Shown: one piece after another, positions 4,688 to 64,000 of the stretch
How positions within the stretch are numbered: position 1 is the first letter of the stretch
Layout of the letters: each line of letters begins with the position of its first letter
Virus record (IMG/VR): IMGVR_UViG_3300017778_004456
Span: 11,996 to 75,995 of that record
Direction: 5' to 3' (one strand)
Length of the DNA stretch: 64,000 nt
Source: a virus
Made by a program: the position numbers and the translations under genes
Notes under the pieces: model-generated
Database searches by the model: none
What the model saw: the letters and a program-made list of their open reading frames with translations, nothing else
What the model was told of the DNA's origin: nothing

Positions 4688-5286
4688 CGGAATTGAAGAG
4701 TGCTGCAATGACCGCCTATCCTGAGACGGTTACGCACGAGTATGGAGACGCCCTGTTCAGCAGCTATCCGGGTGGTAGACCCTATCCGACTGCCGATCAC
4801 ATGCGGACACAATTGTCGGTAGGCAAGCCGATGTTCTTGCTACCCTGCGGACCGTACTTCACAGGAGAATTCTTTGGGTTCGGAGATCAGTTGCCGATGG
4901 ACCCGTTAGTTTCAAGAGGGTTTCGCCACGGGGTGAGCGACTGCTGGGCACTCTATCGAGATTGGTGGAGAGACCGGGGCAGAGTGATGAAAGTATATCC
5001 GCGTGATTGGGGATGGTGGCGATCAGGCTATCGTATGATCGAGGAGTACGCGATTCACGACTTCGACTGCTTAGACACACAAGCGCCGAGAGAAGGGGAC
5101 CTCGTGATGTGGGCGTTTGGTGCCGAACCTCACATACAGCACACGAGCGTTTATCTATCAGAAGGCATGACATTGCATCACACGTCTAGGCGCGGCAGGC
5201 CTCTCGACTTGCTTAGTCTGAGCGAAGTAGTTCCGCTAGACAAGATGCCCGGCCGAGTACATAGCATTTGGAGACCTAAGGAATGA
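4657..5286 (+). CDS. NlpC/P60 tail assembly protein (lambda gpK-like)
   Basis: HGVSDCWALYRDWW catalytic Cys motif, a later HTSVYL...LHH His motif, and an N-terminal JAB-like remnant. Confidence 0.8.
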   Translation: MDSNTQERRLAELKSAAMTAYPETVTHEYGDALFSSYPGGRPYPTADHMRTQLSVGKPMFLLPCGPYFTGEFFGFGDQLPMDPLVSRGFRHGVSDCWALYRDWWRDRGRVMKVYPRDWGWWRSGYRMIEEYAIHDFDCLDTQAPREGDLVMWAFGAEPHIQHTSVYLSEGMTLHHTSRRGRPLDLLSLSEVVPLDKMPGRVHSIWRPKE

Positions 5287-5681
5287 GCACGCCTACTAAA
5301 CTCAAGTCGTTCGGCGGCAAGGCAATGAGGGGCCTCTGCCCCATCTGCATGCGTGAACGACCCCCTATTGTCATCCTCCCGACCGGGTGTGACCTCTGCT
5401 TGGCGGAACGACAGCGCGCTGCAGATAAGGCCGCGTTCGAAGCCAAGAAACCTACCCTCGTTGAGGGAATCATGATCAGGGGTCCCTCCGATCAGGAGAT
5501 TGAGAACATCCGAGACAACCTTCTGGACCGCACGAACTGGACTCAACTCGCAGATCGTCGAGCAAAGATGGGAAATTCTAAGGCGAAACAGTGGGACGAT
5601 TACAGGCAGGCAGTTGATCAAGAAGCTCGGGATGCTAGAGACCAGAAACGTCCTCCAAGTTGGCCTCCTCTACCTACTTGA
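5283..5681 (+). CDS. Putative tail fibre assembly chaperone
   Basis: C-terminal RDNLLDRTNWTQLAD...WDDYRQA...WPPLP pattern typical of fibre assembly proteins; N-terminal CxxC pairs. Confidence 0.6.
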   Translation: MSTPTKLKSFGGKAMRGLCPICMRERPPIVILPTGCDLCLAERQRAADKAAFEAKKPTLVEGIMIRGPSDQEIENIRDNLLDRTNWTQLADRRAKMGNSKAKQWDDYRQAVDQEARDARDQKRPPSWPPLPT

Positions 5682-10704: not shown

Positions 10705-10783
10705 GAACGATAGATAAGTTCGCCCTTGCGTGCGAGGGCGAACTTGTTACTATGTGTGCATGGTCAGCAAAAAGGAGTATCCA

Positions 10784-11419
10784 ATGACCGACGTGACTGA
10801 AACCACCGCCGACGAAGCCAAGCCCCAGAAGCTCGAGAAAGCCAATCAGAAGTTCTACCTTGGGACCGCCGCCTGCCGCAAGGGCAAGATCTACGACGCT
10901 CTCCGCGCTTTTGTCTTCGCGAACCCCGGCATGACGCGCGCCGAACTCATCGCCTCCGCCGACTTGAAGGTCGCTATGGGCGGAACGCGCAACCCAGACG
11001 CTCGCAAGCAGGCGATCGTCAATGATGCCTACGTCAACGGCTATCTCTCCGGCGGACTGCGTCGCAACTTCCTCACCGACAAGGCTGACGAAGCTGCTAC
11101 GGAGATCACGTTCATCGAGACCGGCAAGGCTGTCTCCGACAAGGTCGGCGCCGGCGAACTGACGAAATCCGGCCGCGAGTTCCTGAACATGGTCGCCGGC
11201 ATCCTGACGGAAGCAGGCGTCGCTGCTGATCACCCGGTCAGCGCCGAGACGCTCGAGAAGAAGCTGGGCCGTCCTCTGGCTCTGTCGGCTCGCACGATCT
11301 CGAAGCTGGAAGCTGACGGCTACCTCGACGTCGAGCGTGCCAAGGACGACAAGGGCGAAACGACCAAGAAGATCCTCTCGGTCAGCATCCTGAAATCGGC
11401 GCCAGTCGACGGCGAGTAA
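10784..11419 (+). CDS. Putative DNA-binding protein (winged-helix-like)
   Basis: Own promoter-like sequence, strong AAGGAG RBS and own terminator; C-terminal VSAETLEKKLG...ISKLEADGYLDVER resembles a wHTH. Confidence 0.55.
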   Translation: MTDVTETTADEAKPQKLEKANQKFYLGTAACRKGKIYDALRAFVFANPGMTRAELIASADLKVAMGGTRNPDARKQAIVNDAYVNGYLSGGLRRNFLTDKADEAATEITFIETGKAVSDKVGAGELTKSGREFLNMVAGILTEAGVAADHPVSAETLEKKLGRPLALSARTISKLEADGYLDVERAKDDKGETTKKILSVSILKSAPVDGE

Positions 11420-31854: not shown

Positions 31855-34020
31855 ATGAAGACATACCGCCAGAATCTTCTCCAAAAGATCTCCGGTTCCA
31901 GTAAGGTTGTAGAATATGAGAAGGTAATCCAACCCGACTACGAAGGACTCATTGACGAGTTCTTTCCCGACCGCGTCCTAGAGAACGGTTGGGCGAGAGT
32001 TAACTCGGAGGGCGACGCTGGTCGTTCTCGTGCGTTCAACGTGGAAACTGGGAAGTGGACTAACTTCGCTGAGCAACTTGGCGGGAGCGGATTTCTCAGC
32101 TTCCTGATCGAGCTTAAAGGCTGGTCAGGACTCGGAGACTTCTGCCGGACTCACAAGTCTCCGCTGAACTTCCTTCTCCTGGACAAGCTGCGCGTTCCTG
32201 ACTTCAGTCCGGCGGTTCGTTATGCCGAAGGTCGCGGCTTTGAACTAGGTGGTCGCTGGGAATATCGCGACACCGATGGATTCCTGCTTGGGATTCGCGT
32301 CAGGTTTAACGACAGGAAGACGGGCGGCAAGGAGTTCAAGCTTCTATCGTACCGTACCAATTGCGAAGTCAAAGAAAAGCATCGCCGAGAAGGCTGGCGT
32401 CTTGACGGCGATTGGGGTCCGCTAGATCCGCTCTACGGCCTTGAGAAGTTCGGAGAGATTGGCAACAGGACGATTCTCATCTGCGAGGGTGAGAAAGCAA
32501 CTGACGCAGCCAACAAGCTCATTCCAGAGGAAGTGTTCGCAACGACTTGGGGCTGGGGATCAGCCTCAGGTACGGCCAAGGCGGACTGGAGTTTCCTACC
32601 CGATAGTAATCGCAAGGTCACTTGGCCTGACAAGGACGAGCCCGGTCGTAAGGTCGTGGAGAAGCTGGCAGGCAAGATCGCCGGCCTGAAGGTCGTCCAA
32701 GTTTGGGACTGTCCTGAGCTCAAAGAAGGGGACGACCTATACGATGTCCCACAGAATTTCCGGGACACTGTCCTAAAGATGATTGCGGACGCTACAACGC
32801 TGTCCGGGACGAAGGTGGGCAACGAACTCAAGACCCGCTTCATCTACATCGAGAAGACAGGCGAGTTCTTCGATCGCACAGACGGTACCATCCTGGACAC
32901 CAATCTGTTTCGCAAGAAGCACATGGTTCAGGTAGAGTGTTTGGATGAGGAACTACTGCAAGATCCGGCTATGGTTCGAGTCAATCAGACGTCGTACATG
33001 CCGGGTAAGTCAGACATCTACGAAGATGTCATGGACGGCTACAATCGACGTTTCCTAAACTCCTATCGCGCCCACAATCTGGAAGCTGCTGAAGGAGATC
33101 CTGAGTACTTCCTGGAACATATGTCGTATCTCGTACCGAATGAGAAGGTGCGGAACCACATCATCGACTACCTAGCTTTCATGATTCAGCACCCCGGCGT
33201 GAAGATGCATTGGGCTCCGCTGATTCAGGGCGTGCCGGGTACGGGTAAGTCCTATCTCGCGTTCCTAATGTGTAAGATCCTTGGACGCCACAACGTCAAA
33301 GAGATTACCACCGACGAGTTCAAAGGTGACTTCTCCGGATGGGTCGAGGGCGGACAGCTCGTGGTCTTCGAAGAGGTTATGACCAACGGTCGTCGCGACC
33401 TTATGAACAAGATCAAGACACAGTTCACTTCTGAGACAGTACGCGTCAACAAGAAGAATGTTCAGGACTACCATGTCCCGAACGTGTTCAACTTCCTACT
33501 GTTCACTAACTATGAAGACGCTGTGCTTCTGGACGACGGTGACCGCCGCTTCATGATTTACAACTCGCCGGCTAGGCCGCAGTCAGAAGAGTACTATACG
33601 AACCTGTTCACGTCTACAATTGAGGAGTCCGGCCAAGTACTCTGGATGCTTCAGAACAGGGACCTGTCGAAGTTCAACCCGAAGGGCGTAGCGCCCATGA
33701 CGGAAGACAAGAAGCGCCTTATGGAGTCATCCAAGGGCGAGCTGTACCACGTCATCAAGGAAGCCATCGACACCGCGGTCCTGCCGTTCAATCTAGACAT
33801 GGCAAAGCAGTCTGAGATCATGAACTACGCACGAGCTCACGCCAACCTGCGGAATCCGAAGCAGCTAACTCCAGTCCTGAAACAACTTGGATGTCGCGAA
33901 ATTGCTCGGTTGCGCGATGGAAATGGACACGTTACAGTGTGGGCTGTTCGGAATGCAGATCAATATGTCGACTTCGACGCGCAAGCCTGCCGGGACTTCA
34001 TCGCTCGCCCAACCTCCTGA
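31855..34020 (+). CDS. Primase-helicase fusion (TOPRIM plus SF3/D5-like helicase)
   Basis: ICEGEKATDA and WPDKDEPG (TOPRIM); GVPGTGKS, VVFEE, FTN and DRRF (SF3). Confidence 0.9.
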   Translation: MKTYRQNLLQKISGSSKVVEYEKVIQPDYEGLIDEFFPDRVLENGWARVNSEGDAGRSRAFNVETGKWTNFAEQLGGSGFLSFLIELKGWSGLGDFCRTHKSPLNFLLLDKLRVPDFSPAVRYAEGRGFELGGRWEYRDTDGFLLGIRVRFNDRKTGGKEFKLLSYRTNCEVKEKHRREGWRLDGDWGPLDPLYGLEKFGEIGNRTILICEGEKATDAANKLIPEEVFATTWGWGSASGTAKADWSFLPDSNRKVTWPDKDEPGRKVVEKLAGKIAGLKVVQVWDCPELKEGDDLYDVPQNFRDTVLKMIADATTLSGTKVGNELKTRFIYIEKTGEFFDRTDGTILDTNLFRKKHMVQVECLDEELLQDPAMVRVNQTSYMPGKSDIYEDVMDGYNRRFLNSYRAHNLEAAEGDPEYFLEHMSYLVPNEKVRNHIIDYLAFMIQHPGVKMHWAPLIQGVPGTGKSYLAFLMCKILGRHNVKEITTDEFKGDFSGWVEGGQLVVFEEVMTNGRRDLMNKIKTQFTSETVRVNKKNVQDYHVPNVFNFLLFTNYEDAVLLDDGDRRFMIYNSPARPQSEEYYTNLFTSTIEESGQVLWMLQNRDLSKFNPKGVAPMTEDKKRLMESSKGELYHVIKEAIDTAVLPFNLDMAKQSEIMNYARAHANLRNPKQLTPVLKQLGCREIARLRDGNGHVTVWAVRNADQYVDFDAQACRDFIARPTS

Positions 34021-34219
34021 GATACTCAGACCTCTGGGTAGTGGCTCTCTGGAAGAGGGCCGCGTGAACGTAGTCATCGGGAAGAAGCAACTAGCGACGA
34101 TTCCGGTGCACGACCTTCCAGAATTCTTAAGAGTCCTGGCCCGACAAGTCCCGTTCGGAGCATCTTTCATGAACTACATGCTGAAAGCAGCTGACGAAGC
34201 CGAGGCCAAGAATCGCTAA
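33965..34219 (+). CDS. Hypothetical protein
   Basis: Short ORF overlapping the primase end and followed by a hairpin (gagggatcc...ggatccctc). Confidence 0.5.
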   Translation: MSTSTRKPAGTSSLAQPPEILRPLGSGSLEEGRVNVVIGKKQLATIPVHDLPEFLRVLARQVPFGASFMNYMLKAADEAEAKNR

Positions 34220-34435
34220 TCGCACTGAAAAAAGAGGGATCCGAGGCCACTGGCCTACAAGGATCCCTCAGTCGCTTCACCGCCCGGTGAACTTGCGTGC
34301 TGGCAACTGCCCGTAGAACCCACTTCAGGACGCCTAGCGCGGGCGTTACGCGCGTTCGGCTGTGCGGGCTAGGGGCTGCACTAGGGCAAGGCTGCACCCA
34401 AGGCGGGGCCAGCAGCAAGTCAAATTAGCCTGACG

Positions 34436-45158: not shown

Positions 45159-46367
45159 GGGGCGGCGTTTTGAGCTAGGGTACGCTTAGTCCGCAAGCTC
45201 CTTGGAGGAGTCGTCTGGATAGGTAGATAAAAGGCGTCTGTATCTGGAGGTCATTCGTCAGATATCGACTGCGTCACTGGGAAGTACTTAGGTACTCGAG
45301 CGCGATCCACAAGATAGACGCATTTCTGCGGATAGGAGAGATTAGGGACATGTGGAACGTAGAGAATTCGGTAGGAGTGAGGATAGCTCTGGATCTCGTC
45401 AACGAGGGAATCTAGCTCTAGGAGATTCCTCAAGTGAGGATTCCACCCGAAGCTGTGTCCACGCTCGAGAAGAATCCTTGGATCCACGGTGCGATGAGGG
45501 ATTTTGGGATCCACGCAGAATAGCATCCTACCATATCCAGTCACGATATGATAGGAGAGGGAGATCTTGACCGGGAATCCCATGAAGATCATCACCCATG
45601 GAGGTGAAGATTGTGGGAGCGTCGCGGATAGAGCTTTGAGGGTGAAGCGAGGATTCATGCGGGCTAGGTTAGGCGGGATGCATGTGTCGTACAAGGTGAG
45701 GATTCTTCAGTAGGGACAGAAGGTCGTTACGGCGTGTCGGTACAAATCGCTGCGGTTGGCGTTGTTCCATGTACGAGTTTGGGTTTTCATTAAGTTTGGT
45801 CATAACCTCGGTGGTTAAAGGTTGAAGTGTGTGTCTTTGTACAAATCGCTTTTGTGTTTGGAATAAATATATGAGCTATGTAGAAAGTTGTAGCGGAACT
45901 GTGGAACATGATTATAGGTCACTGTGAGACTCGGGAAGGAGGGCGGTTCCGGTCTGTTCCATGGTTCCATGGTTTTCGGTTTTTGCCGGTTTATGGGTTC
46001 TACCAAACAGGAGCGAATGGTTTGTACCGGAAGAGGAATTATTCCTGTAATTCCAAGGCACTCAGTTGTGTTAGTGGACCGCTGGTCGTTGCGGTGGCGG
46101 AACACGCTCACTTGTTCCGTGGCATTCTTGTACCAGATTCTCAGGAGTTTAAGACTCAGCGTAGGTCTGGAAGCCGGGAACGGGGCAAAATCAAGGAGAT
46201 CGTCAATCAAATTTTGACATTCCAACCACTGATGCCGGCGATCGGGTCCGTGTCAAAATCTCCCCAGCAGAGATTCGTCCACTCTTAAGAGTCGCTGGTC
46301 GGTCTCATACGGAATCGGCCCAGGACTCGCATCCTGGGCCGACCCGACAGTATTGAATTGACGTGAA

Positions 46368-46706
46368 TTACATCTTCACTCGACGGAAGGCTGACCCGGA
46401 TGGGGAGATCCGATACAGTCCCTGACCGTCGGCACAGATGACGTCGTACATATCCGTGTCATCCGTGTTCCGTTGGATTCGGACGCCCTCGGCCTCGTCT
46501 GGACGAATGAGCTGAATCGCCAACAGACCTGTGATCAGGTCCTCGTAGTCACCTCGAGCGATGGAGCCCGGACGAACGTCGATTCCGACACCCGACTGAG
46601 CCCACGTCAGTTCTGGAAGATTCCAGATCGTGACGTACATCTTAGCGGTCGGCCTGATGGCGATGACCTCCGCTGACTTACCTGTTCTCTTCCGCATTGC
46701 CGACAC
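46368..46706 (-). CDS. Hypothetical protein
   Basis: GGAG RBS with GTG start; followed by hairpin 46315-46342. Confidence 0.6.
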   Translation of the reverse strand: MSAMRKRTGKSAEVIAIRPTAKMYVTIWNLPELTWAQSGVGIDVRPGSIARGDYEDLITGLLAIQLIRPDEAEGVRIQRNTDDTDMYDVICADGQGLYRISPSGSAFRRVKM

Positions 46707-46920
46707 TATGATCTCCGCGCTTGTGGACGCTGTTACTTATACCCTAACGGTAAGCCATGATAACGCCCAGCGCAACAATCTTATGGTCTTCCAGTATCAA
46801 CCTCCTCACGTGGACGACATAGCCTATTGCCTGGACGAACGTTTGCGCGTACATTATGCTCATGGTTGGCGGCAAGCCCGTCCACCATCACAGCAACGAG
46901 TCCACAAAGGAACTGAGACC

Positions 46921-47427
46921 ATGAACACCAAGACATCCACGTCCAAGCTGCCGATGGCCGCGACCGACAAGAAGACCGACGTCGCCGACCCGACTGCCAA
47001 GGCCCCCAAGACTCCGGGCGGCGTTGACATCTCGGCGGCGAAAGCCAAGGCATCCTCCAAGGATGCCGACGCTGCGAAGTTCGTAGGCAACTACACTCGC
47101 CTGACGACCCTCGCGGCCCTGAGCTTCGACGCTCTGGCGGCTGAAGTCGGCGATGTGGGCGCGACGCCTGCGGAACTGGCCGACACCACGAAGTGGCTGG
47201 CCTCGGACGACGAGAAGCTTCTGACAGCCAACCGTTCGCCCATTCGCAACGCGATCATCGCCATCTGCCGAGCCAACCCCGGCGTTGAAGCCCGCGCGAT
47301 CCACCTGATCATGCGAGCCACAGCCGGCGAGAGCTACCGCGGCTCGTACGACAAGGGCTACCTCTACGCGCCGAACTCCAAGACGCGCGGGATGGAAGCA
47401 CGCGGCCTCGTTATCCGGCAGGCGTAA
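46921..47427 (+). CDS. Ala/Lys-rich putative DNA-binding early protein
   Basis: AAAGGA RBS, upstream TGGACG-17-TATGCT promoter-like sequence and downstream hairpin. Confidence 0.7.
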   Translation: MNTKTSTSKLPMAATDKKTDVADPTAKAPKTPGGVDISAAKAKASSKDADAAKFVGNYTRLTTLAALSFDALAAEVGDVGATPAELADTTKWLASDDEKLLTANRSPIRNAIIAICRANPGVEARAIHLIMRATAGESYRGSYDKGYLYAPNSKTRGMEARGLVIRQA

Positions 47428-48877
47428 GTCGGCCAGGACGACAGGTAACTAGACGGAGGCGGACTGGGTGCAAGCTCAGTCCGCCTCTGACGAGAGGCTC
47501 TTAAGGAGTCTTAAGAATCCCAGATTATGGAGAAGAGAATGAGCGAAGCAAGTCGAGAACTATTGAGCGAAACCTTGATGACGGCTGGGATAGACGGAAA
47601 CACCGAGTGGTTCTACCCTCTGGTAACCGCCATCTCGACGGACCTAGAGACAGGCGAGGACCTGGAATCCCCGGAGCAGACTCCGATGATCACGGTCGAC
47701 CTAACGAGGGAGCACCTGGACTGGATTGTCAGGAATGTCGCAGTCCAATGGGAGGGCCGAGACCCACAGAGTCTGTGGGTCGGGGAGAGTGAGCTGTTCG
47801 TTCGGGAGACTCTGTGGTCGAAGCGATTCGCCTACGTCGTGCTCCAGGACGTGAAGGGCGGATTCATCTGCTGGGTCTGGCAGAGCGACCGAGCCGGAGT
47901 CTTAAGAATCGCCAGCCCTCACCTGTCTGTTCCAGCGGGAGTCCTGGAGAGTGAGTCGATTCGAGTTCTGGAGCTTCTCCAGTCCCGGGCCAACTCCTGA
48001 CCACACTGGCGACACAGCGTAGGGGCGCACTCCAGGGCGGGTAGGCTGGGCCAGCACACCCGCCCTGGATGCTGCGTAGAGTAAGCGTAGGCTTGCCTGA
48101 CGAGGTTCACGCGCGTACCTTGTAGGGGCTGGCAACGGGCCAGCGTCAGGTTATGGAGACAGAAGTGACCGTTGAAGAACTAGGAATCCAGGTTGACAAG
48201 ATGAAGGTGAAAGCCTTCGACCTGATGAAGAACTCCGAGCACGTGAATCCTCAGCACGCCGGGTACGAGACCTACGCCGACCTCTGTGCGGCGACAGTCA
48301 AGGCGACCCAGAAGGTGATCATCAAGTTGATCACCGACTGGGAACGCAAGAACCCGATGGAGGACTAGATGAGCAATTTATCATGGATGAAGCAATCACA
48401 ACTCGGGCTGTTCGAGCTATCACTCGCACAGCTCGGACTCGAAATGATGCCGATCGACGAGGACGAGAGCGAGGCATACTACGAGACGATCTACAAGTGT
48501 CGTCAGTTAGTCAACAGGTGCCGACCGAGTCTGTCACTCATGCTCCGAGTCGGCGTCGAGGTATCGTATGTTGATGTCTGGCGAATGCAGATCGAGGAGA
48601 GCGACGAGTATCTCGTGCGATTCTGGACGAGCAAAGGCCCGGATTTTGACGAGGCCGAGTTCCACCTAGCGCAGGAGATTGCTGAGTGATCTACGCAGTC
48701 TACGACCGAGCGGAACGGAGGACTCTCGCCAAGAAATCCGACCGGAAGGAGGATCTCAAAGGGCTGAGAGACAACCTGGAGAGACTCCACGCGACGATGG
48801 ACGTTCCACGAGACCGGGACGGCATTCCTCTGGACGAGAATAGACGCAGGTTTGTTATCCGGCCGATGCAGTAACAC

Positions 48878-48906
48878 TTGCCAGACGACCCGGCTTGGCG
48901 CATATT
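48878..48906 (+). promoter_or_regulatory. sigma70-like promoter
   Basis: TTGCCA-17-CATATT with GCTTG in the spacer. Confidence 0.6.
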
Positions 48907-49678
48907 GCATGTACGCGCTGGGTGACCCGGTTCTTACCGGACAATCTGCCCAGTTGGCCTGATCTCGGGCCATCATGCAAGCCTCAAACCAGAGGCAGAG
49001 GTCTGAGTCGGGGCAGTCATCCCCGACACTCATGGAGTACCTGAAGTGAGAAATCATTGGAACAACTGGGGCCGGGAGATCACCGGCTGGGGATTGATCC
49101 TGGTCATCGTGTGCACGGGATCGTGGTTCGGAGCCGAGGTTGGCGCGAACTACATCCGCGCGCTGATCGACGGCGGACAGTGGGGGAAATAGTCATGTTG
49201 AGCAAAGAACTCAAGCACAAGATCCGCAGAGCGTGGGCTCGCAAAGCCTGGGAGGACGGTCCCACGGACACTCTGGCCCTCAAGCAGGAGATCCGCGACC
49301 TGATGGATGTCCTGGCTGTGGACGGGAAGGTCGGCCTCGTCATCTGGCAGATGGACTGCGATTGTGCGTCCTGGACCAGCCTGATGGTGATCGAGAACTC
49401 GCTGGTTGACTACAACCGGGCGATCACCGGCGTCTACTCCAATGCGGAGGGACCGGTCCGGATCCACTTGGCGAGCCCAGACACCGAGGTCCAGCGCAAC
49501 GAGCGGGACCACGCTCTGGAGGCCCACGAAGACGGACACCCCTACTCCGTCTCGTACTGAGATTAGAGCGGCGAGGAGACAGCTTCTCGCCGCTCTGGTC
49601 TATAGGTCAGTCTGGGACTCTTAAGAATCGCAGAGGACTCTTAAGAATCGCGGTGTGGTCTGTGGGATGCTAAGATGC

Positions 49679-49707
49679 TTGCATGACGCGCGTGCTTGTG
49701 GCATGTT
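49679..49707 (+). promoter_or_regulatory. sigma70-like promoter
   Basis: TTGCAT-17-CATGTT with GCTTG in the spacer. Confidence 0.6.
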
Positions 49708-50297
49708 GCAAGTACGCCGCAGTTGGCGTGTCAAGGGACCTATCCACATGATAAGTCGCATCCGCATAATCACTCCCGAGGGCCGAGTCCACGTGGTTGA
49801 TCAGAGCTGGTCTCAGCTCTGCCAGACGATCCGTCCTCTCTCAGACGAGGACAAGAAGGAGTTCTGGAACAAGAAGTCCATGCCTCTGCCCGAGGGCGGA
49901 AGCGTGAAGCTGGTCCTGGAGGGCGTGTGATGTACGACATGATTCACACGTTCAACACCGGCCGGAAATACACGGTCCACGGTCAGCGCATCATCGCGAA
50001 GTCTCGTACTGATGGACGAGGTCCGATCCTGTTCAACGATCTGGACCGCATGATCTACGGTTCTCTGGACCGAGAACCTCCGGAGGGATGGGCAAGTCTC
50101 ACCGAGAAGGAGCGTCAGAGCTACATCCTGCACGAGTACGACTGCGGATACTACCGCTGGCACCAGGATGCTGACGCCCTGAGGAAAGAGTGGCAGTAGA
50201 TCTCACCGGCGAGGAGATGACTTCTCGCCGGTTGGGTCTATTCGTCTGTCTGGGACTCTTAAGAATCGCAGCGAGTATGTTGGGATGCTACCTACCC

Positions 50298-50326
50298 TTG
50301 CATGATACGCGTGCTTGGCGTACCTT
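50298..50326 (+). promoter_or_regulatory. sigma70-like promoter
   Basis: TTGCAT-17-TACCTT; near copy of the 49679 promoter. Confidence 0.55.
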
Positions 50327-50767
50327 GTAAGGGTAGGTAGCAAAGGAGAATCTACATGGGATTTCAATCAGGCGCGAAACATCAGCGATCCGCGGTCCGA
50401 GCAGCTCTGGAGGACCTGATGAAGGTCAACTGTGCCAGACTCGCCGAGGACCAGGACTTCCCTGAGCGGGAGCTCTTCGAGAACAGCGACCAGGACAACG
50501 AAGGCTGGGAGAAAGTCATCGACATCCAAGTCGAGTGGGAGACGGCCCGGATCTGGGAGCACTCTGAAGACAACAGACTCATTGTCGTCCTGTCTGACGG
50601 CGGAAACGAGGATGATTACGAGGTTTGGGAAGTAGCCTAGACAACGGGGAACGGAGGCAAGACAGATAGGGAGCGGAGGCGAGACAAGGCCTCCGCTTCC
50701 GCTCAACTTGGATGCAAGGACTCTTAAGAATCACAGCATGGTCATTTTGACCACATGATACTTGCAA

Positions 50768-50795
50768 TTGACAGCCTGACCGGCTATGGTATAGT
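50768..50795 (+). promoter_or_regulatory. sigma70-like promoter
   Basis: TTGACA-16-TATAGT. Confidence 0.6.
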
Positions 50796-51819
50796 GTGGC
50801 TGGGGTCGTCCCAGAGTCCACAGTGCAAGATGGAGCTGAAGTCTATGCTGAACATTATGACTCTTGAGCGTCCTGTGATCCAGGGCCCCTCAGGTGCTGA
50901 GACCCCGAGAATCGCTGAGGAAGCCCAGTCCACGGACTATGACTGGCTTCCACGGTGTTCCACGCCGATCCGCGTGGTTCCGCGGATGCCCAAAACGATC
51001 CGCACCATCGGATACGCTTCCAGGCAATACGAGGTTTCCGCAGGCGTGGAAGAAATCGTGAAGAAGGCCGGAGGGATGTGGACCTACATGAACGGAAAGT
51101 ACTTCCCGAGCAAGGGCCGCACGAAGCAGAACGAGGCGAACCTGGTCAAGGCCGGTCTCATCGCGGTGTGTAGCGACCGGAGCAAAAAGGTGGTGTTGAT
51201 GCTCGAAAAAGAGCTCAAGACGCTGCTCGGGTAGTGGTCATTTAACTATCAGGCGTGTAAGCTGGGGCAGGCAAGGCGTTGGTCTTGTCTGCCCTTACGC
51301 ATGGAGAGAACGAAGTGCAAATGGATATCGATGAACTGGTCGGTGCTGACCCGAACACTTGGCGTCTAGCCGACCGGAATCTGGCACGTGAGGTCAAGTT
51401 TCCGGAAGTGGGAGTGGTATTCCTGTCTGGTAAGCCGGGTGCGAAACTGGTTCCACGGGAGTGTAAGTCGCTGAAGCCGATGGGTGCTTCGGCTATGCGG
51501 CACGGAAACCTGACGTGCTGCTACGTTGAGTACGAGGAACTGAGGGATGGGATGTGGTATCGTCACATTCATGGGCATTGGGCGACCTTGGATGGTCACC
51601 GTGTCCGTCAGTGTTGGTTAGTCGCCGCGAAGTAGCGGAGGGTAATCCCGACCCGGTCAGTGAATGCTGACCGGGTCTCCCCGGCCGAAAGATGTTGACT
51701 CTTAAGAGTCTGGCCTAGATCTCCCCCGCGGAGAGATGATCAGTCTTAAGAGTCCACGGCAGACTCTTAAGATTCCCCGGGTCTCCCTCGCGGCGATTTG
51801 GATTCCTGGATGCCCTACC

Positions 51820-51897
51820 CGGCACGGTACGTACCGTTTTACCTAGGCGGCACGGTACGTACCGTTTTACCTAGGCGGCACGGTACGTACCGTGCCG
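51820..51897. repeat. 28-bp tandem repeat x2 plus a third partial copy forming a perfect 22-bp palindrome
   Basis: CGGCACGGTACGTACCGTTTTACCTAGG at 51820 and 51848; CGGCACGGTACGTACCGTGCCG at 51876-51897. Confidence 0.95.
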
Positions 51898-52052
51898 TAT
51901 GGGCTACCCTAGGGGCAACCTGCCTGCGGCATAATGCCGCACCCCGGTTCCGTGGCATGGTTTGTGGCAATGCATGTACCGTGCCAAGCGCCGCCCGCCT
52001 ACCTGCGGCATATAGCCGCACCCTTTGGGGCGTTTTTGTTGCTTGGGGCTAG

Positions 52053-52081
52053 TTGCAATTGGCAATGGCTTGGGCCATGTT
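52053..52081 (+). promoter_or_regulatory. sigma70-like promoter of the GA/TC-free gene
   Basis: TTGCAA-17-CATGTT with GCTTG in the spacer, same pattern as 48878 and 49679. Confidence 0.6.
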
Positions 52082-52127
52082 GCTTGTGCGGCGCAATTGC
52101 CGCGTTACCCAAGTAAAGGCCACCACT

Positions 52128-52601
52128 ATGCAAAAGCAAACCAAAGCCCCCGCCACCGCCGCTGCAACGCCCGCCGTTGCGCCTGCAACGCCCGTACAGG
52201 CGCTTACGCCGCGCCCCGTGCGGGTTGCCGCCCACGCTGGCATTGCCGCCGCAGCGGGCAAGCTGGCCGCAGGCACGGCTAGCCCCACTGTACCGCGCGG
52301 TTGCCCTGCTACTGTGTACCTTACCGCCCAAGGCATTGCCTTGGGCGCGCCGGGTGCAGCCGGTAGCGGCCTAGCGTGGGCGCTGGCGCAATGCGCCTAC
52401 GCTACCGCACAAGCAACGGGCGGCAATGTGCCCCAAGCTGGCCACGCTGTTAATAGCGCCATGCTTGCCGCCGCGCTTGTGCGGGCGGGCATTACGCCGG
52501 GCTACCTTACCGGTAGCTACGTTGCAGGTAGCGCCAAGCACGCCAAGGGCCAAACCAATAAGCAACGCTTGGCCGTGCTGGCCTATGCCGCGCCCACCTA
52601 G
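52128..52601 (+). CDS. 157-aa Ala-rich basic protein with no Asp or Glu, encoded without any GA or TC dinucleotide
   Basis: ATG 52128 after AAAGG, TAG stop, flanked by a promoter and a terminator. Confidence 0.7.
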   Translation: MQKQTKAPATAAATPAVAPATPVQALTPRPVRVAAHAGIAAAAGKLAAGTASPTVPRGCPATVYLTAQGIALGAPGAAGSGLAWALAQCAYATAQATGGNVPQAGHAVNSAMLAAALVRAGITPGYLTGSYVAGSAKHAKGQTNKQRLAVLAYAAPT

Positions 52602-52625
52602 GGCGGCAACGTAAGGCAAGCATAG

Positions 52626-52658
52626 GCGCCCCGGCAGCAATGCCGGGGCGCTTTGCTT
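52626..52658 (+). terminator. Intrinsic terminator
   Basis: gcgccccggca-GCAA-tgccggggcgc then tttgctt; lies at the convergence of + and - gene blocks. Confidence 0.75.
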
Positions 52659-52753
52659 GGCGCTTGTTGGTATGCCCATGGTACCTGTAGGGGTATTGCC
52701 CCGGTTTTTTACGTGGCCGCACCTAGTGCATCAGTCAATTTTCTATTGATCAC

Positions 52754-62065: not shown

Positions 62066-64000
62066 ATGAAGCTCCTAACTAGACTGCTAGGAAGCGGCTC
62101 CCGATACGCTCTGTATCAGGCGGGACGTCAGGGTACTCCTGATCCCAAGATCCCTTACCTACCTATAGAGATAATACCGACGACGCCGATTGTCGGTACG
62201 GCCAACATCACTGTTGGAGCAATCACCTCTACAGCGACCAGCGTTCTAACTAATAGTACTGTTGATGGTACCGCTAACGTCACTCTAGGAGCTGTCACTT
62301 CTACAGCGACCGGCGTTCTACCTATCGCTGGTGTCGCCAGTCCTACACTCGGTGCGATTACTGCCACAGGCGGTCCGAGAGTACCGACTGTGGAGAGCGT
62401 CACGCGCGGCAACAGCAACGTGGACGTGTCTTCTACGAGCGTTACGCTTCCCGCGACGATCAATGCGAATGACGTACTGATTGCTCTGTTTGTAAATGAC
62501 GGCACCGCAACGGTCACATGGGACAACGCGACCGCTGGAACGTGGACGCAACTCTTTACGACCGCCAACATCTCAGTGCGCCTGTCGGCCTTCTGGAAAG
62601 TGGCGACGGGTACTGAAGACGGGGCGGTTCTAAGTATCGGTACGTCTGCCGCCGAACGCTCGGCTTGGCATATCTACCGAATTTCAGGCGGGCAGAGTGT
62701 ACAGGCTGGCACGTCTGCGACTGCCTCAAACACGTCCGCCAACCCTCCCAGCCTTACACCTTCGTGGGGAAGCGCACAGACGCTTTGGCTTCCTGTGTTC
62801 GGCGCGGACCTAAACGCGACCGACCCGAACGGTGGCCCCGCGAACTACACTGCCACCGCAATCTACGATGAGGCGAACAATGTAAACGGCGTTGGGATCG
62901 GGTCGGCTTACCGCGTTAACACCGCAGCATCGGAAGACCCTGCCGCGTGGGCTCTCAACGATAACCCGGAAACTGTCGCCAACACGCTTGCCGTCCGGCC
63001 CGCCACAGTCACAGGTGCTACGTCCACACTAAGCATCTCAGGCACTTCTAACTCTACTCTCGGCTCCTTTACTACGACGGCAACTAGCACCCTCGACATT
63101 ACAGGGGCGGCTAGCTTGACTCTCGGAAACGTCACTAGTGTGGCGACTTCGACAATTTCGGGATCACTGGTTGCGAATGACCTGACGTCAGATTCCTTTG
63201 TCGGATCGCCTGCTGTCTCGCAGAACCACTCGCTGACTGCTAACGGCCTGACGTCAAATTCCTCTGTCGGATCTCCTACTGCCTCAGTAGCCTCGAATCT
63301 GACTGCTAACGGCCTGACGTCAGAATCCTCTGTCGGATCGCCTGCCGTCTCGCAGAACCATTCTCTGACTGCTAACGGCCTGACGTCAGAATCCTCTGTC
63401 GGATCGCCTGCCGTCTCGCAGAACCATTCTCTGACTGCTAACGGCCTGACGTCAGCGTCCTCTGTTGGATCGCCTGCCGTCTCGCAGAACCATTCTCTGA
63501 CTGCTAACGGCCTGACGTCAGAATCCTCTGTTGGATCGCCTGCCGTCTCGCAGAACCACTCTCTGACTGCTAACGGCCTGACTTCGGCCTCCTCCGTTGG
63601 ATCTCCCACTCTCGTTGTGACTGGGAATCTGGCTGCCAACGATCTAACGATGGCCTCCTTCGTTGGATCTCCTGCCGTCTCGCAGAACCATTCTCTGACT
63701 GCTGACGGTCTGACTTCGGCTTCCGTTGTCGGATCTCCTGCCGTCTCGCAGAACCACTCTCTGACTGCTAACGGCCTGACGTCAGATTCCTCTGTCGGAT
63801 CTCCGAGTGCCTCAATAGCTTCGAATCTGACTGCTAACGGCCTGACTTCGGCTTCCGTTGTTGGATCGCCTGCTGTCTCGCAGAACCATTCTCTGACTGC
63901 TAACGGCCTGACTTCGGCTTCCGTTGTTGGATCGCCTGCTGTCTCGCAGAACCATTCTCTGACTGCTAACGGCCTGACGTCGGCTTCCTTTGTTGGATCG
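62066..64000 (+). CDS. Long fibre-like protein with 22-aa repeats; 3' truncated and absent from the ORF track
   Basis: ATG 62066 after GAGG (MKLLTRLLGSGSRY...). Translated by eye in the N-terminal part and the repeats with no stop seen; Thr/Ser/Ala/Gly-rich. Confidence 0.8.
   Translation, partial: MKLLTRLLGSGSRYALYQAGRQGTPDPKIPYLPIEIIPTTPIVGTANITVGAITSTATSVLTNSTVDGTANVTLGAVTSTATGVLPIAGVASPTLGAITATGGPRVPTVESVTRGNSNVDVSSTSVTLPATINANDVLIALFVNDGTATVTWDNATAGTWTQLFTTANISVRLSAFWKVATGTEDGAVLSIGTSAAERSAWHIYRISGGQSVQAGTSATASNTSANPPSLTPSWGSAQTLWLPVFGADLNATDPNGGPANYTATAIYDEANNVNGVGIGSAYRVNTAASEDPAAWALNDNPETVANTLAVRPATVTGATSTLSISGTSNSTLGSFTTTATSTLDITGAASLTLGNVTSVATSTISGSLVANDLTSDSFVGSPAVSQNHSLTANGLTSNSSVGSPTASVASNLTANGLTSESSVGSPAVSQNHSLTANGLTSESSVGSPAVSQNHSLTANGLTSASSVGSPAVSQNHSLTANGLTSESSVGSPAVSQNHSLTANGLTSASSVGSPTLVVTGNLAANDLTMASFVGSPAVSQNHSLTADGLTSASVVGSPAVSQNHSLTANGLTSDSSVGSPSASIASNLTANGLTSASVVGSPAVSQNHSLTANGLTSASVVGSPAVSQNHSLTANGLTSASFVGS
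63167..64000 (+). repeat. 66-bp coding tandem repeat, at least 12 copies (LTANGLTSESSVGSPAVSQNHS)
   Basis: Unit ctgactgctaacggcctgacgtcagaatcctctgtcggatcgcctgccgtctcgcagaaccattct, with variants. Confidence 0.95.

Follow-up and report, generated by a model that had tools for sequence, protein, structure and literature searches.

The 64,000-nucleotide stretch of viral DNA analyzed here (the window, to which all coordinates refer unless a contig is named) comprises bases 11,996-75,995 of the 75,995-bp IMG/VR record IMGVR_UViG_3300017778_004456, a record classed as linear and ~75% complete. Between 46280 and 51775 the window, with a GC content of ~55%, carries a 5.5-kb block of small early genes, in whose spacers a 14-bp palindrome, GANTCTTAAGANTC (the box), recurs behind GC-rich stem-loops. 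The block includes a minus-strand gene (46368-46706) and rightward genes, the first of which (46921-47427, plus strand) encodes a protein of 168 amino acids with relatives of 63-81% identity. One metagenome contig of 5,993 bp that carries a homologue of this first early protein, L016, is co-linear with the block: homologues of 6 of 14 window proteins occur on it in unchanged order, with identities of 28-63%. A first-pass annotation of the DNA had described six stem-loops lacking a T tract, each with the palindrome 18-21 nt behind it in the direction of transcription, and had suggested that a bound dimeric protein, or modification of the GA/TC sites in the palindrome, stalls RNA polymerase and so takes over the role of the U tract. 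Re-measurement of the coordinates and gaps reproduced the six units, which lie among the following copies of the box:

46280-46293, minus strand: copy with one mismatch, reading GACTCTTAAGAGTG on that strand, 21 nt downstream of the hairpin at 46315-46342.
47506-47519, plus strand: exact copy after an 18-nt gap, with no promoter behind it; 20 nt further on come a Shine-Dalgarno GGAG and the ATG at 47539.
47897-47910, plus strand: exact copy inside the open reading frame (ORF) 47539-48000, with no hairpin in front.
49616-49649, plus strand: two exact copies 20 bp apart, the first 19 nt after a hairpin, the second 29 nt before TTGCAT-17-CATGTT.
50254-50267, plus strand: exact copy 21 nt after a hairpin and 30 nt before TTGCAT-17-TACCTT.
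50719-50732, plus strand: exact copy 18 nt after a hairpin and 29 nt before TTGCAA-17-TATGGT, which overlaps TTGACA-16-TATAGT.
51697-51775, plus strand: cluster of three copies (51697 exact, 51741 with one mismatch, 51762 exact) with interleaved TCTCCC(C/T)NGC.
34122-34135, minus strand: outlier with one mismatch between the convergent genes 31855-34020 (plus) and 34167-34418 (minus).

The eight exact copies in the window (47506, 47897, 49616, 49636, 50254, 50719, 51697, and 51762) compare with a mean of 0.01 in shuffled sequence, where none of 100 shuffles reached eight, and they are also the only exact copies in the whole record, in which a reversed-pattern control gave none. Together with the one-mismatch copies at 46280, 51741, and 34122, 10 of the 11 copies with at most one mismatch fall inside 46280-51775. 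The copy at 46280, which had been annotated as a full GANTC-TTAA-GANTC element, is present but reads CACTC...GAGTC and is thus not a strict GANTC pair; the ~1.1 kb downstream of it is without a convincing ORF. Beside the copy at 47506 lies a degenerate, overlapping one, CTCTTAAGG, at 47496-47504, and the outlier at 34122 is located 31 nt past the stop of the minus-strand gene, with only a weak stem before it by eye. The cluster 51697-51775 forms the right border of the early block, followed by non-coding repeats, just before a 0.92-kb stretch that is practically free of GA/TC.

The record contains 12 copies of the core TCTTAAGA, which is invariant in all of them, and 10 lie in the interval 46283-51772. 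The outer GA/TC is invariant as well, variation being confined to the two N positions, and neighbouring copies are spaced by 20 bp (49616/49636), 21 bp (51741/51762), or 44 bp (51697/51741) from start to start, which is about two or four helical turns. Because the core and the outer dinucleotides are invariant, the N positions free, and the spacing of copies regular, the 14-mer is a dyad with the anatomy of a site for a dimeric DNA-binding protein. This lends support to the dimeric protein of the first-pass annotation as far as the site is concerned, while six-frame searches returned no binder. The better-conserved half, GACTC or GAGTC, points upstream in 10 of 11 copies, all but the one at 51741 (CAGTC), so that the orientation of the box relative to transcription looks non-random. 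The possibility that the motif acts as an RNA hairpin itself was rejected, since the N positions do not co-vary to pair (C stands opposite A in six copies).

The stem-loops that precede the boxes, together with one strong stem-loop of the same kind that has no box, are:

46315-46342, minus strand: U-less stem-loop 25 nt after the stop of the minus-strand gene 46368-46706 (z -4.1).
47456-47487, plus strand: U-less stem-loop after the gene 46921-47427 (z -6.3).
49565-49596, plus strand: U-less stem-loop after the gene 49195-49560 (z -6.5).
50205-50232, plus strand: U-less stem-loop after the gene 49930-50199, a paralogue of 49565-49596 (z -2.8).
50669-50700, plus strand: U-less stem-loop after the gene 50356-50640 (z -4.3).
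51650-51677, plus strand: U-less stem-loop after the last early gene, which ends at 51635 (z -6.1).
48031-48069, plus strand: strong U-less stem-loop with no box behind it, after the gene 47539-48000 (z -5.2), followed by a candidate promoter TTGCCT-17-TACCTT (by eye).

All six box-bearing stem-loops fold stably (76-nt windows with a minimum free energy of -31 to -42 kcal/mol, z -2.8 to -6.5), and they lie 4-28 nt past the stop codon. In having a GC-rich stem-loop after the stop they resemble intrinsic terminators, from which they differ in the missing U tract: the longest T run in the spacers is 2, the first 10 nt hold 1-5 T, and nothing corresponds to a U tract of 7-9 nt directly after the stem. 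The distance from the end of the hairpin to the box is 18, 19, 21, 18, 19, and 21 nt for 47506, 49616, 50254, 50719, 51697, and 46280, respectively, or ~14-19 nt when G-U-extended stems are counted, and the order is mirrored for the minus-strand gene 46368-46706, so that the arrangement indeed flips with gene orientation. The cassettes 49565-49710 and 50205-50330 are paralogous, and the other spacers and hairpins are without similarity by eye; the six units therefore represent five independent cases rather than six. For these five, gaps within a 4-nt span are expected with P = 5e-6 when the box is placed uniformly in each spacer (Monte-Carlo), which bears out the earlier observation that the spacing is kept though the hairpins differ. 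Chance and pure paralogy as origins of the pattern are ruled out by the shuffles and by this simulation. A kept gap to unrelated hairpins points to a constraint from the transcribing polymerase and not from the DNA sequence. Five copies lack a hairpin 18-21 nt in front (47897, 49636, 51741, 51762, and 34122), of which 49636, 51741, and 51762 are second or third copies within a spacer.

A constraint of this kind could be explained most strictly by a roadblock, such that the U-less hairpins cannot terminate alone and a protein on the box halts the polymerase just past the stem, supplying what the U tract would otherwise provide, conditional on the presence of the protein or on the modification of the four thymines that stand in TC context. 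The polymerase of Escherichia coli is reportedly halted ~14 bp from EcoRI-Q111. In yeast, RNA polymerase I (Pol I) stops 15 bp upstream of a Reb1/Nsi1 site, where the roadblock alone does not release the transcript, while a stable hairpin of any sequence releases it within seconds (Nielsen and Zenkin, 2025, PMC12366685). By analogy, the 18-21-nt gap would place a halted polymerase 3-7 nt past the stem. The description of Pol I termination in that study also includes deep backtracking and a requirement for a T-rich tract between hairpin and roadblock; such a tract is missing here, so that the likeness to the eukaryotic system is one of mechanism only. In favour of the strict explanation, purified mycobacterial and E. 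coli polymerases do not terminate at hairpins without U tracts (PMC3993855); roadblocked complexes can be removed by Mfd (PMC10310618). A single swap between the two phages fits the strict explanation as well: after the first early gene, the hairpin of L016 has a T tract (GAGTTTTGCTTTAAT) and no box, whereas that of the window is U-less and has 1.5 boxes.

The distribution of hairpins in the record argues against it. Among 29 strong hairpins (at least 10 bp, at most two mismatches, dG ≤ -15), a box lies behind 6 and none behind 23, and at least six post-gene hairpins have neither a T tract nor a box (10714, 11446, 15315, 48031, 51265, and 52624), two of which were folded and gave z values of -5.2 and -4.4. 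The U-less hairpins at 200-227 and 4259-4285 of L016 are also box-less. U-less hairpins are thus the rule in this phage and not special to box-bearing sites, and the box does not seem to replace the U tract. Santangelo and Roberts reportedly found in 2004 that a block just ahead of bacterial RNA polymerase can inhibit release at forward-translocation terminators. The variant of the first-pass annotation in which modified GA/TC sites stall the polymerase is unlikely, as these sites are spread over the whole transcribed early region at about one per 6 nt (938 in 5,576 nt). We know of no roadblock-plus-hairpin terminator in bacteria or phages, and a literature search on roadblock-assisted intrinsic termination found no bacterial or phage system. 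The mechanism of the first-pass annotation is plausible on physical grounds, by analogy to Pol I, and is neither shown nor required by the data; as a strict explanation of the units it is doubtful. In the corresponding scenario, to which we likewise give limited credence, a bound protein would halt the host polymerase ~15 bp before the box and 3-7 nt past the U-less stem, the hairpin would release the transcript, and binding could vary between incoming modified and freshly replicated DNA. If true, this would be a factor-dependent, DNA-directed terminator, a phage or bacterial counterpart of Reb1/Nsi1 plus hairpin that modification state could switch. Outside eukaryotic Pol I, no terminator composed of roadblock and hairpin would precede it, and it would offer an explanation for U-less hairpins after genes.

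On its other side, the box faces candidate promoters. In three of the six units a sigma70-like promoter follows at a fixed distance, with 29, 30, and 29 nt between the motif end and the -35 box for 49636, 50254, and 50719, and the box centre lies ~36 bp upstream of the -35 box (about -72). These are candidate promoters called from the sequence with a permissive pattern and by mutual similarity. The first of them has a particular dinucleotide context:

49679-49707, plus strand: candidate sigma70-type promoter TTGCAT-17-CATGTT, overlapped by a 45-nt run free of GA/TC (49686-49730).

The kept distance raises the alternative that the box serves to regulate the next promoter from upstream, with an activator of class-I type or a repressor bound to it, and that the distance to the hairpin is a by-product of compact cassettes. 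Indeed, in the tandem 49616/49636 it is the promoter-proximal copy that keeps the distance. However, only two of the three cases are independent, 49636 and 50254 belonging to the paralogous cassettes; no promoter pattern occurs within 200 nt after 47506, 51762, or 47897, and none was seen by eye after 46280 or 34122, while candidate promoters of the same type at ~46841, 48083, and 48878 have no box at that distance. Since this alternative also leaves the 18-21-nt hairpin spacing unexplained, we consider it unlikely as a full account.

Taken together, the six hairpin-palindrome units may be the upstream halves of composite intergenic cassettes, each composed of a stem-loop, an 18-21-nt spacer, the 14-bp dyad box and, in three cases, a promoter of the host sigma70 type 29-30 nt beyond the box. 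Such cassettes would punctuate the 5.5-kb block of ORFan early genes of this uncultured freshwater phage. The box would be the operator of a dimeric DNA-binding protein, either a lineage-specific ORFan product of the phage or a protein encoded by the host, and when bound, behind stem-loops and at both borders of the block (three-fold at the right one), it would most likely block read-through, so that each unit would be insulated and the non-coding flanks shielded; promoters that follow at the fixed distance may also be tuned by the box. In line with a role behind genes, 10 of 11 copies follow a transcription unit (6 behind hairpins, 3 additional ones in the same spacers, and 1 between convergent genes), and a recognizable promoter comes after only three of the copies, or four if the tandem partner is counted. 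The elements exist, their spacing is non-random, and they are lineage-specific; that they are PeSL-like terminator/promoter cassettes with a lineage-specific box for a dimeric protein as read-through barrier is the explanation we favour, with moderate confidence.

PeSL cassettes of T4-type phages combine strong sigma70-like promoters with stem-loops acting as terminators, are located among ORFans, and recombine to give indels and replacements (Arbiol et al., 2010, PMC2839356; Comeau et al., 2014, PMC4122927). The units described here share the stem-loop, combined in three of them with a candidate sigma70-like early promoter, the small ORFan early genes, and the gene swaps between close relatives. 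As in the hyperplastic regions of non-essential ORFan genes that house PeSL-type cassettes, ORFans are concentrated in the block: none of 10 early ORFs tested has a Pfam family at E ≤ 0.001 or a PHROG family at E ≤ 0.01, and only the six proteins named above out of 14 have an L016 homologue. By contrast to PeSLs as these reports describe them, the stem-loop is placed 60-80 nt upstream of the -35 box and not in or next to the promoter, an AT-rich region upstream is missing, and an invariant 14-bp dyad box, which the described PeSLs do not have, sits at a kept distance between stem-loop and promoter. Of the present phage, the portal, PolA, and TerL proteins were examined, and the identity of the first two to any isolate (at most 33% and 38%, respectively) does not mark it as a T4-type phage. 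Should the box be only an operator, the finding would extend the shuffling of promoter/stem-loop cassettes from T4-type phages to an unrelated freshwater phage. A second comparison is offered by the stoperators of L5 and other cluster A mycobacteriophages, short sites for gp71-type repressors with many intergenic copies, which were proposed to stop elongating RNA polymerase (PMC9283540). Many copies of a short site in intergenic spaces, with an orientation that here, too, looks non-random relative to transcription, are common to both; however, stoperators as described there are asymmetric 13-mers bound by a monomer, distributed genome-wide in temperate phages and without hairpins, whereas the box is a 14-bp dyad and not an asymmetric site, is confined to one 5.5-kb block with one outlier, and comes without a repressor or integrase among the genes found.

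The motif scan of relatives that had been suggested as a check gave a divided result, with no box in L016 even at two mismatches and the box present in contigs of the runs X3 and X5, whose identity to the stretch is ~94%. Hairpins do follow genes in L016, which also carries three near-identical TTGCCC-17-TATGTT promoters. The window and L016 align on either side of a 24-column gap at the left border, where the window has its box, and the homologous hairpin there is U-less in both phages. Because L016 manages with hairpins and promoters alone, the box is, on this comparison, a lineage-specific addition that is dispensable for the basic layout.

Strain comparisons, based on Logan contigs and not on reads, show loss, rearrangement, and replacement of genes at the junctions, with the boxes retained. 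In X3 and X5 a joint 49688->50308 represents a crossover between the paralogous promoters that removed the genes 49748-50199. The X3 contig has a diverged gene 50356-50620, the hairpin 50669, the box 50719, and then the promoter 49690-49746, with joints 50729->49690 and 49746->50707 and 369 foreign letters between them, position 50707 being 12 nt before the box 50719. Indels and replacements of the kind that recombination between PeSL cassettes produces are thus found in these contigs. Among the differences listed, the only one inside a box is 49627 A>T (X2, X3, and X5), at an N position with the GANTC preserved. The RNA run X22 yielded only pieces of 36-496 nt, mostly less than 90% alike.

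These rearrangements bring in a further alternative, in which the box is a recombination or mobility feature, a palindromic unit of ~20-24 bp that has spread into spacers as a point of homology or cutting and has little role in transcription. The 24-column gap at the left border and the copies 20 and 21 bp apart would suit such a unit, as would the 22-bp TCTCCCC period of L016, stretched to 44 and 62 bp in the window where boxes interleave, and the switches of X3 at 50729, within a box, and at 50707. On the other hand, the record has no integrase-family recombinase (PF00589, sought as the mark of an IntI/attC system, has no match in it), and no transposase, nuclease, or other recombinase is among the 25 of 27 Pfam families listed; the best-supported joint, 49688/50308, is in a paralogous promoter and not in a box; and an aligner switches wherever homology resumes, so that the joints do not show cutting. 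Selfish spread, moreover, does not account for the kept hairpin distance, and we regard this alternative as very unlikely.

Several observations weigh against the favoured explanation of cassettes with a protein-bound barrier. The first is the absence of the box from L016, with the dispensability that follows from it. The second is the copy at 47897, since a barrier at this site, within an ORF, would cut the message short; this speaks equally against the strict roadblock. A third concerns the promoters, as a strict scan of 44-54 kb gave 4 sites, including 50768, where 4.1 are expected. Finally, the searches for the binding protein were negative: HTH_3, RHH_1, ParB_N, N6_N4_Mtase, GcrA, and Phage_integrase have no match in the six frames of the record, which is ~75% complete, and many regulators escape the HTH_3 and RHH_1 models; no DNA-binding family occurs among the 25 of 27 Pfam families listed for 79 further ORFs.

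The conserved early proteins are poor binder candidates because their putative recognition segments are unchanged in the box-less L016, and the product of 46921-47427, whose AlphaFold2 model has a mean predicted local distance difference test score (pLDDT) of 50.9 and is too poor to search with, is judged from this comparison not likely to be the motif binder. A proposed paralogy of 46921-47427 with 10730-11419 found no support in BLASTP (E = 0.38). The genes 49748-50199 were rejected as a source of the binder, too, since X3 and X5 have deleted them yet keep the box. Possible binders, by elimination, are the products of the lineage-specific ORFs 47539-48000, 48153-48368, 48369-48689, and 48686-48874, or a host protein; for ORF 48686-48874 a search of the ESM Atlas gave a best score of 0.83 and no family.

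A second repeated sequence, TCTCCC(C/T)NGC, marks both borders of the early block in both phages. It is found at 46259, 51676, 51720, and 51782, always on the plus strand, and in L016 at 168, 4677, 4699, and 4721; the three right-hand copies of L016 are 22 bp apart, and those of the window are 44 and 62 bp apart with the palindromes interleaved. As it is kept in both phages, unlike the palindrome, it is the better candidate site for the conserved early proteins.

The wider genome bears on the question of DNA modification. Genes in the window encode an SNF2 helicase, a family A DNA polymerase, a UvrD-like helicase, a large terminase, a ribonucleotide reductase, a DUF5906 primase-like protein, and a DUF4055 portal. 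Scanning 79 other ORFs against Pfam added a 5-hydroxymethyldeoxyuridine (5-hmdU) DNA kinase domain (2e-30), a TAGT-like glycosyltransferase, a thymidylate-synthase homologue, a dCMP deaminase, an HD hydrolase, and DUF3310, as well as a holin of the gene transfer agent (GTA) type, a muramidase, and Pam3 gp33/gp34-like proteins. From these assignments, the set from the kinase to DUF3310 is a predicted gene kit for thymidine hypermodification. No dinucleotides of the record exceed expectation more than GA and TC (observed/expected 1.32 and 1.36), and TA falls furthest below it (0.64). Immediately past the box cluster, however, 51810-52730 (921 bp) contains a single GA/TC, at 51949, compared with about one per 6 nt elsewhere, and the homologous L016 stretch 4763-5679 (917 bp) contains none. 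The two phages seem to share an island that lacks this dinucleotide, the probable mark of thymine hypermodification. In the DNA of the phages M6, ViI, and phiW-14, TG/TC was found to be enriched at restriction-resistant sites, and the authors attribute this to the 5-hmdU kinase (PMC6449724); the exact modification motifs were described as not known in 2018 (PMC5889632). By analogy, hypermodification in virion DNA probably affects the four thymines of the box that stand in TC context, and probably not those of the TTAA centre. A genome with such a GA/TC code, enriched overall and depleted over at least one candidate promoter and over a 0.9-kb island, would be a good system in which to relate hypermodification to transcription signals. 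Within the GA/TC-poor stretch are non-coding repeats together with a gene (~52128-52601) for an Ala-rich product devoid of Asp and Glu.

In view of this composition, the GANTC pentamers could themselves be the functional units, either methylated, following the logic of CcrM/GcrA, or as clusters of hypermodified thymines, and the box an epigenetic mark. Each exact copy does present two GANTC sites at a putatively regulated position, with GA-TC invariant and N free, and the gene kit, the TG/TC-enriched sites of the three phages, and the ~0.9 kb without GA/TC kept beside the block border in both the present phage and L016 would be compatible with such a mark. A host in which GANTC is methylated is also conceivable, as the GTA-type holin and the nearest portals hint, by sequence similarity, at an alphaproteobacterial host, among others. 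Yet the record contains no detectable methyltransferase and no GcrA (PF01555 and PF07750 match the Caulobacter controls and not the record), and the central TCTTAAGA is as invariant as GANTC, though GANTC readers do not need it. GANTC alone cannot mark the sites because the genome has 469 copies of it. We regard the epigenetic mark, too, as very unlikely.

Megablast found no close relative among isolate phages. The portal is at most 33% identical to that of any isolate, the nearest being from alphaproteobacterial and cyanobacterial phages, and has no relative in IMG/VR, and PolA is at most 38% identical to any isolate. The runs in which the stretch is present (X1-X9) are labelled as freshwater or riverine metagenomes.

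Relatives were also sought by alignment and by pattern. Searched with the alignment A1, IMG/VR returned no more than a weak 50-residue match (L017) without repeated 12-mers, and genome_contigs returned none. The pattern of two neighbouring copies occurs at 15 loci in IMG/VR, 8 of which have at least one full 14-mer, and the loci inspected were rejected as relatives, being unrelated tandem 9-bp arrays of the TCTTAAGAG type in contigs of other composition. In genome_contigs the same pattern gave 79 loci, 30 with at least two full 14-mers, of which ~20 belong to one repeat in a Bacteroidaceae metagenome-assembled genome (MAG) and six to a staphylococcal plasmid spacer; none of these loci provides a relative or a host lead. 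In the staphylococcal plasmids (L021, L025, L053, L059, L086, and L097) GAGTC/GACTC-TTAA-GAGTC occurs twice, with starts 31-32 bp apart, in an unannotated spacer ~1 kb downstream of repA that is kept in 64 plasmid records, 63 of them staphylococcal. In the Bacteroidaceae MAG (L019 and ~20 further loci) GATTCTTAAGAATC at 21-bp spacing is part of a dispersed repeat. Both are probably unrelated protein sites that share the dyad.

A number of minor features lie in and around the block. To its left, the ~1.1 kb from ~45170 to 46280 (minus direction), whose two longest frames look unlike proteins in translation, has an unusual strand composition (GC skew +0.15 in 44-46 kb) and no Rfam match, as no Rfam family was found anywhere in the window. 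At 51820-51900, just past the triple box cluster, are two 28-bp tandem repeats, each with ACGGTACGTACCGT and CCTAGG palindromes, and after them, at 51876-51897, comes a perfect palindrome of 22 bp with a stem of 9 and a loop of 4. X3 has a 4-nt insertion in this region, for which an origin, a pac site, or a genome end are possible roles. The sequence TATCCACA at 49741-49748 directly abuts the ATG of the gene 49748-49930 and matches a DnaA-box consensus at 8 of 9 bases. At the right end of the window, near-identical tandem repeats of ~66 bp at ~63400-64000 lie inside the last, open-ended ORF (62066-64000), whose product is probably fibre-like, and these repeats provide the most frequent 12- to 14-mers of the window.

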